Positions 58,228 through 60,079 of a stretch of DNA of 64,000 bases are shown in pieces. This DNA comes from Neodothiora populina (taxonomy: Eukaryota), in NCBI RefSeq assembly GCF_041146345.1, contig NW_027191402.1:434001-498000 (forward strand), in the 5' to 3' direction. The notes beneath the pieces were generated by a model. The model did no database searches and was not told the origin of the DNA. It saw nothing but the letters and a program-made list of their open reading frames with translations. The position numbers were made by a program, and so were the translations under genes. Numbering within the stretch: position 1 is the stretch's first letter; each line of letters opens with the position of its first letter.

Positions 58228-58957
58228 ATCATATGTTAATTATGTAGACAATTATTGCGAGGCACTGTGTAGCCCGACCAGTCAACTTCTCCACTACAAT
58301 TGTAGGGAGTCTAGAACTTATGAAACTCGGAGTATACTGTACTTGTGACAAGCAGGATTGGTCATCTTGGCTGTCGTCGTCCCTCGGCCCGCATCTCTAG
58401 TACAAGGACCCCTTGAACCGATATCGTACAGGGATGGCCTCGGCTTCTCAATGTTTTATCGCAAGAAACTGTAGAAGTATTCGTCTTGCATGAAAACAAG
58501 ATTATATTGCACTGCAGCCATTACAAAGCGAAAGCTTGTAGACTAAGTTGCCTAATCATGTATGGGAGTCACAATTTGTCAGTGGGGTACAACCAATCGT
58601 ACAATAAAATAATGAGACGCCTCTTTGTTCGCAACGATTACTTACTTAAGCGTCCACTCGCGTGTTCGAGAAGCGTTAGGCCGACGATAGCAAAACTTCC
58701 ATCGAATTTCTTCGTAATTGACTATACAATAACATTTCGCATATAAACCCATCGTGCCTGTGACTTGTCAGACCCACTTCTACCATTTAGCAACCGTCAA
58801 AGTGTTCTCATCAGCCTTTCGCCGTCCGCTCAGGACTGCATTCTCGCTCCCTTTCATTGCTGGTGCCGCATACTACAAACCTAGCAATCCCACCCCACCT
58901 GCCATTTTATCCTTCGCCCCCGCCACCGCTCCTTCGACAACATCTATAATCCGCGCA

Positions 58958-60079
58958 ATGCACTCCAAGGTCGTCATCATCGGCTCTGGCCCCGCAGGCC
59001 ATACTGCAGCCATCTATGCTGCTCGCGCTGACCTCAAGCCTGTCCTGTACGAGGGTTTCCTCGCCCTCGGTATTGCAGCAGGTGGCCAGCTCACCACCAC
59101 CGACGAGGTGGAGAACTTTCCCGGCTTCATGAAGATTCAGGGCGCAACCTTGATGGTAAGTCAACGACAGCCCTTTGTTGAAATGACTCAGTACTAACGT
59201 GTCCACCAGGATCAAATGCGAGCACAATCAGAGGCCTGTGGCACCGAGATCGTCTCCCAGACTGTCGGCAAGGTCGACCTCTCAGAAAGACCCTTCAAGT
59301 ACTGGCTCCATCCCATGGGCGACGATGACACTCTCGAGGAGGAGACGCACACCGCCGACAGCATCGTCATCGCTACCGGTGCCAAAGCCCGCAGAATGGA
59401 CCTGCCCGGCGAGGAGAAGTTCTGGGGCAATGGAGTCAGCGCCTGCGCCGTCTGCGACGGCTCCCTGCCCATCTTCAGAGAGAAGCCCCTGGTCGTCATC
59501 GGAGGTGGTGATTCCGCCGTCGAGGAGGCCATGTACTTGACCAAGAAGGCAGCCAAGGTCACCGTTCTCGTCCGCAAAGACCAACTCCGCGCCAGCAAGG
59601 CAAACGCACGCCGTCTTGCATCCCACCCCAAGGTTGAGATCAAGTACAACACTGTCGCGACTGAGATCACAGGAGAGGACAAGCCCAGGGGGCTTATGAC
59701 CGGCCTCAAGATCAAGGACACAAAGAGCGGCAAGGAGGAGGAACTCCAGGCCAATGGTCTGTTTTACGCCATTGGCCACGAACCCGCGACTCCTCTTTTC
59801 AAGGGACAATTGAAGATGGACGAGGACGGCTACCTGGTCACAGAGCCCGGCACTACACACACCAGCATCGAGGGTGTCTTTGCCGCCGGAGATGTACAGG
59901 ACAAGAAGTACCGCCAGGCCATCACCAGCGCAGGTACCGGATGCCAAGCAGCTCTCGAGGCAGAGAAGTTCCTGGCAGAGCAGGAGCCTGGCAATAATCT
60001 GGAGAACAACTCCGAGGTCAAGAAGGGAACAGAGAACGGGAACGTAGCTCCTGAGTACCGATCTAACCCTCTGCTCTAG
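58958..60079 (+). CDS. TRR1: Thioredoxin reductase (AUG form; possible GTG-initiated extension from 58802)
   Basis: [26 protein letters not shown] redox motif, VIGGGDSA and VFAAGDVQD; one intron. Confidence 0.96.

Follow-up and report, generated by a model that had tools for sequence, protein, structure and literature searches.

The low-molecular-weight thioredoxin reductases (TrxR) of S. cerevisiae are encoded by two genes, TRR1 for the cytosolic and TRR2 for the mitochondrial enzyme (PMC2754438; 10.1101/2025.04.24.650474). The initial annotation of the locus studied here had referred to TRR2 as a separate mitochondrial gene: The two genes stand as claimed, with the nuance that Trr1 is itself a candidate for an extension initiated at a non-AUG codon. 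In their text, Monteuuis et al. (2019) place yeast Trr1 among the non-AUG extension candidates that gain a mitochondrial signal and cite it as having been detected in mitochondria earlier (PMC6582344). At the locus described below, the same enzyme family would likewise serve cytosol and mitochondria, but one gene would supply both compartments instead of two. KlTRR1 of K. lactis may share such a one-gene arrangement, albeit with a predicted signal of 29 residues that is AUG-initiated; TRR activity is reported in both fractions (PMC2754438). For N. crassa, a 2025 preprint describes a single TR gene with "no N-terminal peptide signal" next to a TRX3 with a predicted mitochondrial signal, comes to the conclusion that this species "seems to lack a mitochondrial TR", and raises this mismatch in its discussion (10.1101/2025.04.24.650474).

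Wallace et al. (2020) described near-cognate-initiated mitochondrial isoforms of fungal aminoacyl-tRNA synthetases (aaRS) under the name "DualNCC" and found that strong-context near-cognate codons and weak AUGs swap in the dual-localized enzymes of this type (PMC7049704). As far as these accounts go, the DualNCC aaRS and the MT-NTE proteins are read from one mRNA in one frame, with a strong-context non-AUG codon adding the mitochondrial signal and the downstream AUG giving the cytosolic form, and with near-cognate codons and weak AUGs exchanged between lineages; the TrxR gene presented here would resemble them in each of these respects. It differs in that the protein is the single TrxR of Pezizomycotina and that the sequence of its extension is conserved in at least five classes; the yeast Trr1 extension is compared by description only. 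A single redox-enzyme gene whose alternative translation initiation yields differently targeted isoforms is likewise described for TrxR/GR of Plasmodium falciparum; this TrxR, however, is of the unrelated high-molecular-weight type, and its upstream start may be AUG or not (PMC3009606). A further comparable case is cpc-1 of N. crassa (Ivanov et al. 2017), for which near-cognate codons conserved throughout Pezizomycotina, with A at −3, and a non-AUG N-terminal extension under purifying selection (dN/dS 0.285) are reported; this extension differs in bypassing uORF control and is described without a targeting role, and the words thioredoxin and mitochondri- are absent from the main text of that article (PMC5487733).

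The window, by which we mean the whole stretch of 64,000 nucleotides of Neodothiora populina DNA that was analyzed, contains at 58958-60079 on the forward strand a gene for a low-molecular-weight thioredoxin-disulfide reductase that consists of two exons:

58958..59155, forward strand: exon 1 of thioredoxin reductase, counted from the annotated ATG (context cgcgcaATGca) with which the short, presumably cytosolic isoform begins

59156..59209, forward strand: intron of 54 nt, GTAAGT...CAG; joining of the flanking exons reproduces protein P0031

59210..60079, forward strand: exon 2, which encodes the redox centre CAVC as well as the conserved tail ...PEYRSNPLL at the C-terminus and ends in the stop codon TAG

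P0031 is the 355-residue Neodothiora populina protein as annotated from this ATG, and it shows 100% identity to the spliced product of the window. Its profile score against TIGR01292 is 374.2 bits (cut-off 343.45), with the match spanning profile positions 2-300 of 300. Both dinucleotide-binding motifs (GSGPAG and GGGDSA) and a CxxC motif (CAVC) can be read in the translation, where we take the former two to bind the dinucleotides and the latter to be the redox-active pair of cysteines.

Our attention lies on the sequence that precedes the annotated ATG, which is composed as follows:

58612..58746, forward strand: possible uORF of 44 codons, from ATG 58612 to TAA 58744; not conserved

58615..58957, forward strand: zone free of ATG in all three frames, presumed 5′ leader plus extension, flanked by the ATGs at 58612 and 58958

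58742..58747, forward strand: TATAAA, candidate TATA box with a putative functional role, located 55 nt before the GTG

58793..58801, forward strand: initiation context ACCGTCAAA, with A at −3 and C at −4; conserved

58802..58804, forward strand: GTG, proposed near-cognate start of a long isoform, in frame with the enzyme and aligned with the start codons of relatives given below

58802..58957, forward strand: N-terminal extension of 52 codons, proposed mitochondrial presequence with 5 basic and 0 acidic residues; homologous extensions exist in relatives

58952..58954, forward strand: CGC, which encodes the Arg at position −2 relative to the internal Met and is proposed to mark an R-2 processing site; Arg in 26/28 sequences

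The initial annotation had read most of these elements from the letters alone, and its description is borne out by our re-examination: Upstream of ATG 58958, the TrxR frame stays open over 75 codons, from 58733 onward behind the stop codon TAA at 58730-58732, and the GTG at 58802 lies in this frame in the excellent context gtcaaaGTGtt, with the TATAAA about 55 nt before it. The peptide encoded by the 52 codons indeed contains 4 Arg, 1 Lys, and neither Asp nor Glu, and Arg occupies position −2 relative to the annotated Met. The absence of ATG, noted from 58802 on, turned out to extend even further upstream. The resulting ATG-to-ATG gap of 346 nt belongs to the top 0.6% of such gaps on the window's forward strand; on average, these gaps measure 54 nt. 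That the extension is more than a chance open frame is concluded from the comparative data rather than from the window alone. The possible uORF would matter only if transcription began upstream of 58612. Two more GTGs of this frame, located upstream at 58754 and 58760, were weighed as alternative starts but dropped, since the relatives resemble each other from 58802 onward; neither of these GTGs is conserved in them.

For the comparison with relatives, metagenome contigs were scanned with the extension and exon 1, which yielded 80 loci. The 29 loci whose match reached into the extension were inspected in detail: 27 of them carry a homologous extension, and the remaining two (L062 and L072) do not and were excluded from all counts, so that the following numbers refer to the window plus 27 loci, 28 sequences in total. 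As these loci are kin to each other, evolutionary events among them are not independent and the counts overstate independence; the identity of their extensions to that of the window is 33-59%. The other 51 loci were scanned solely for the frame upstream of the GSGP motif. Here, 48 loci have no homologous extension and mostly look prokaryote-like, in that a stop or start occurs shortly upstream. The other three are a partial extension interrupted by the contig end (L024), a different open frame (L039), and a locus without the GSGP motif (L080).

The initial annotation had suggested that leaders of relatives be compared for the conservation of start codon and frame and for a synonymous substitution pattern. 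With respect to the start codon, all 28 sequences possess either a near-cognate codon or a weak ATG at the position of GTG 58802: CTG aligns here in 21 sequences and GTG in 3, one of which is the window; ACG is present in 1 sequence and ATG in the other 3. Position and strong context of the in-frame near-cognate codon are thus kept in 25/28 sequences, and all 25 non-ATG starts are preceded by A at −3 and C at −4, 24 of them also by A at −2, and the consensus is CCGCCAAA-CTG-TTC. The three ATG starts belong to one lineage; their context, with T at −3, is weak and would make these starts leaky as well. At the main ATG, in turn, a purine is present at −3 in 28/28 sequences. To locate the onset of conservation, ungapped nucleotide identity was anchored on the start codon in 22 non-redundant loci that remained after removal of six near-duplicates: It amounts to 0.28-0.31 between −69 and −10, rises to 0.70 between −9 and −1 and to 0.86 at the start codon itself, and is 0.59 in the next 15 nt. 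Correspondingly, in a three-way alignment of the window with L016 and L017, the ACCGTCAAA before the codon is invariant and the sequence farther upstream is poorly conserved. A TATA-like TATATACA occurs at a comparable distance in these two loci.

The region behind the start codon carries the signature of coding sequence. Although the length of the extension varies between 39 and 67 codons, 28/28 sequences have an open frame between start codon and ATG, and length changes are all in frame, with no frame-breaking indel in any of the 27 loci; conservation of the frame, the second point of comparison, is therefore evident. The 28 extensions contain 0 stop codons in frame versus 27 and 15 in the other two frames, and within the 40 codons that precede the start codon, the same frame contains 36 stops. 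The third point, the substitution pattern, is biased toward synonymous changes: The closest pair (L016 vs L017) differs in the extension by 8 synonymous and 0 non-synonymous substitutions, and dN/dS of the extension, with dS being estimable in 18 of the 20 pairs, lies between 0 and 0.52. For exon 1, where 16 of the 20 pairs allowed a computation, the value is 0-0.13. Because of these dN/dS values, we regard the extension as being under purifying selection as a protein that is weaker than the selection on the enzyme core. In addition, ATG is absent from the 4218 nt of all 28 extensions, where 29.6 would be expected from the base composition; exon 1 contains 95 ATGs versus 63 expected. Five short contigs of relatives, whose resemblance to spliced mRNAs we infer from their uninterrupted ORFs and their layout, comprise 158-250 nt upstream of the start codon; a poly(A) tail was not seen on the contigs of relatives.

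Moreover, the composition of all 28 extensions is presequence-like. Their first 30 residues contain 0 acidic and 99 basic residues taken together, and the whole extensions, with 1434 residues in sum, contain 12 acidic and 164 basic ones; the fraction of Ser, Thr, and Ala ranges from 0.36 to 0.54. The basic N-terminus is followed by a conserved uncharged Ala-rich segment. The hydrophobic moment of the extension in the window reaches a maximum of 0.80, a value that is attained by 2.6% of shuffled sequences, and across the 28 extensions 0.2%-42% of shuffles attain the observed value, which makes this a weak and only suggestive test. Arg is found at −2 of the internal Met in 26/28 sequences. The use of CGN as well as AGR codons for it suggests that selection acts on the residue instead of the nucleotides. 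The two sequences that deviate are L003, where the Arg stands at −1, and L004, whose Met has no Arg in its vicinity. The matrix processing peptidase recognizes sites with Arg at −2 of the cleaved bond (R-2 rule). The conserved Arg fits this motif, and processing at this site would follow from it if the rule applies here.

To assess how widely the extension occurs among fungi, a profile built from the extension only was searched against 1.84 billion representatives and matched 31 proteins at E-values up to 0.001. Of these, 29 were fetched; most of them are short ORFs terminating in MHSKVV, after which they run into an intron. A word-index search with one of the fetched fragments then led to long gene models of named species that read through the extension. 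Among Sordariomycetes, such models were found in Neurospora intermedia (TAKLFSSTFRRTLRSS...KRN|MHSK), N. crassa, Claviceps, Stylonectria, Colletotrichum, Verticillium, Thermothelomyces, and Hypoxylon, with the N. crassa model comprising the C-terminal part of the extension. Leotiomycetes are represented by Lachnellula, Monilinia, and Phlyctema, Lecanoromycetes by Blastenia and Caeruleum, Eurotiomycetes by Aspergillus rambellii, and Dothideomycetes, already in the first search, by Elsinoe, Aureobasidium, Friedmanniomyces, Hortaea, Stagonosporopsis, and Boeremia. At the level of sequence, the extension is hence conserved in at least five fungal classes. A search in Basidiomycota with L062 gave 9 matches, none of which covers the upstream part convincingly; for this reason, we make no claim beyond Pezizomycotina.

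In total, the extension motif is present in 70 of 264 collected proteins. The residue at the start position is L in 45 of them, V in 8, S in 3, T in 2, P in 1, and M in 11, where M occurs only as the first residue of an ORF and the underlying codon may differ from ATG. Many of the long models are fusions to the upstream gene, which encodes a Vps53-like protein in Hypocreales, an enoyl-reductase-like protein in Sordariales, and a WD-repeat protein in Elsinoe and Aureobasidium. Such fusions of TrxR to its neighbors are an expected effect of a leader that offers gene predictors neither an ATG nor a stop codon.

The initial annotation had proposed that a near-cognate start at GTG 58802 provides a mitochondrial isoform from the one TrxR gene, and the comparative data support this proposal strongly. 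We consider it likely that the extension is a mitochondrial presequence with near-cognate initiation and that dual targeting is brought about by leaky scanning. In this mechanism, one thioredoxin reductase mRNA that includes the GTG would be translated in one frame from two starts. A fraction of the scanning ribosomes, presumably the minority, would initiate at GTG 58802 owing to its strong and conserved context with A at −3, which would produce a precursor with a basic and acid-free presequence of 52 residues that directs import into mitochondria. The remaining ribosomes, presumably the majority, would scan through the ATG-free leader to ATG 58958 and synthesize the cytosolic enzyme. In the matrix, R-2 cleavage guided by the Arg would let the mature enzyme begin at the internal Met or adjacent to it, and, because of this predicted position of the cleavage site, the imported enzyme would be nearly identical to the cytosolic one.

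A different way to two isoforms would be alternative transcription starts, with long transcripts that contain the GTG and short ones that begin between GTG and ATG. We regard it as unlikely that the isoforms arise mainly in this manner, although the position of the TATAAA at 58742-58747 lends the idea some plausibility: Only 55 nt separate it from the GTG, so transcription could begin mainly near or downstream of 58802, and according to Wallace et al. alternative transcription starts are sometimes used by fungal dual-localized aaRS (PMC7049704). On the other hand, 28/28 extensions are free of ATG in all frames, a property that leaky scanning requires and that short transcripts would not need, and a near-cognate codon or weak ATG is a leaky device in itself. 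The short transcripts could yield the cytosolic form only. Both modes, leaky scanning and alternative transcription starts, can coexist. A translated extension might also lead elsewhere than to the matrix, be it to the intermembrane space by means of a short hydrophobic stretch (LPxAAAA) or to another membrane. The conserved uncharged Ala-rich segment behind the basic N-terminus would be compatible with such a route, which has a precedent in a yeast thiol peroxidase that gets to the intermembrane space by a non-AUG extension (PMC5368413). We nevertheless deem this destination improbable in view of the shortness of the uncharged segment, of the conserved Arg at −2, which suits processing in the matrix, and of the mitochondrial signal predicted in N. 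crassa for the expected partner of the enzyme, a Trx3-type thioredoxin (10.1101/2025.04.24.650474).

More fundamentally, the region could be an untranslated leader whose open frame and conservation stem from an RNA-level regulatory element or from chance. Taken by itself, the window's open frame of 75 codons would not be very improbable, and the depletion of ATG is not confined to the extension: The 150 nt that precede the start codon contain 16 ATGs versus 38.4 expected. This reading is hard to reconcile, however, with indels that occur in frame only, with the contrast in stop codons between the frames, with dN/dS below 1 in every pair for which dS is estimable, with an Arg that is kept through synonymous codon families, and with ATG having taken the place of the start in one lineage, and we therefore consider it highly improbable. 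Just as little credence is given to the extension being read from an ordinary AUG of a spliced upstream exon. This is how many database models have it, which join the extension to upstream genes or begin at upstream ATGs, as exemplified by a model of Aureobasidium pullulans that begins 17 codons upstream. Yet the joined partners vary by lineage among the Vps53-like, enoyl-reductase-like, and WD-repeat genes mentioned above, the similarity ends at the near-cognate codon, and in-frame stops are located 5-62 codons upstream in 25/28 sequences, with the frame of the other 3 reaching the contig end.

The mechanism by which we explain the extension is already known, and TrxR as one of its members appears to have gone unrecognized. 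Searches of the full-text literature did not turn up any account of a Pezizomycotina TrxR with a non-AUG extension; an earlier mention in Wei et al. 2013 is possible. That study (J Biol Chem 288:9549) reportedly lists conserved near-cognate codons in N. crassa leaders and is said to have identified CUG, GUG, and ACG as the most efficient non-AUG starts. In one supplementary file of Wallace 2020, the terms thioredoxin reductase, TRR1, CNAG_05847, and NCU08352 are all absent (PMC7049704), and the supplement of PMC7498311 contains only a row for fission-yeast trr1, which is not relevant here.

Beyond leaky scanning at the single locus, a wider reading offers itself, namely that the CUG/GUG/ACG-initiated presequence dates back to the common ancestor of most Pezizomycotina and is the sole source of mitochondrial TrxR in filamentous ascomycetes. 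We put this forward tentatively, as a conceivable scenario that is slightly less likely than not. If it were true, the "missing" mitochondrial TR of Neurospora and Aspergillus would be explained. Because the long isoform would need a near-cognate start, the mitochondrial share of the enzyme would furthermore track how stringently start codons are chosen, as set by eIF1/eIF5 levels or stress, and the redox capacity of the organelle would thereby be coupled to translational control.

For the annotation of these genomes, it is of note that the annotated protein begins at the internal ATG here and in most relatives, and that the models of many species merge TrxR with its upstream neighbor. In filamentous ascomycetes, a single TrxR gene exists next to a thioredoxin with a predicted mitochondrial signal, and how the latter is kept reduced is the discrepancy raised in the discussion of the 2025 preprint (10.1101/2025.04.24.650474). 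A TrxR isoform in the organelle may also be relevant to antifungal work on the enzyme, since TrxR of Aspergillus fumigatus is reported to be essential for virulence, as cited in the same preprint. The conserved non-AUG presequence would provide a concrete answer to the discrepancy regarding the mitochondrial TR of Neurospora, and it comes down to one codon that can be mutated in a model fungus.

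In many public gene models, the thioredoxin reductase (TrxR) is joined to an unrelated upstream gene, the predicted coding sequence reading through the ATG-less leader that precedes the annotated TrxR start. Such fusions comprise the proteins P0004, P0019, P0022, P0028, P0153-P0160 and P0164-P0173, among others, and their upstream partners are Vps53-like, enoyl-reductase-like or WD-repeat proteins; these models look like systematic annotation errors. The fused models from Elsinoe (P0004) and Aureobasidium (P0028) carry N-terminal halves that are similar to the product of the gene located directly upstream of TrxR in the window, which contains the following features around TrxR:

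55217-56240 (-): open reading frames with an Ala/Glu-rich acidic tail
56835-58227 (+): upstream neighbour gene of TrxR, similar to the N-terminal halves of P0004 and P0028
58612-58746 (+): upstream open reading frame of 44 codons that opens with the final ATG ahead of the leader and closes with a TAA overlapping the TATAAA
59975-60076 (+): C-terminal tail of TrxR, ending in PEYRSNPLL

Stretches common to all three upstream products include GDKFGDVYSLPL and LLLGHVSMLTD. Consequently, this gene adjoins TrxR in three Dothideomycete lineages; an NCBIfam scan assigned no family to its product. The minus-strand frames may belong to a gene of ribosomal stalk protein P0. The 44-codon frame would be relevant only if transcription started upstream of 58612. 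At the other end of TrxR, the PEYRSNPLL ending is kept in the majority of the homologues retrieved from Dothideomycetes, and the corresponding tail of the single Neurospora crassa enzyme is termed, in a preprint, a disordered extension whose function is undetermined (10.1101/2025.04.24.650474).

Similar N-terminal architectures occur in other TrxR loci. The TrxR proteins P0268 and P0274 begin at an AUG with a presequence-like N-terminus (MLRGSKRLSLLSS...) and have a further, internal Met immediately ahead of the GSGP dinucleotide-binding loop; they present the architecture of the ascomycete extension in a two-AUG version. Two basidiomycete-like metagenome loci, L039 and L062 (the latter cut by a contig edge), display Arg-rich, acid-poor open frames without an in-frame ATG upstream of the first Met. 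Neither frame is a homologue of the ascomycete extension, and the two may represent an independent instance of the same device.
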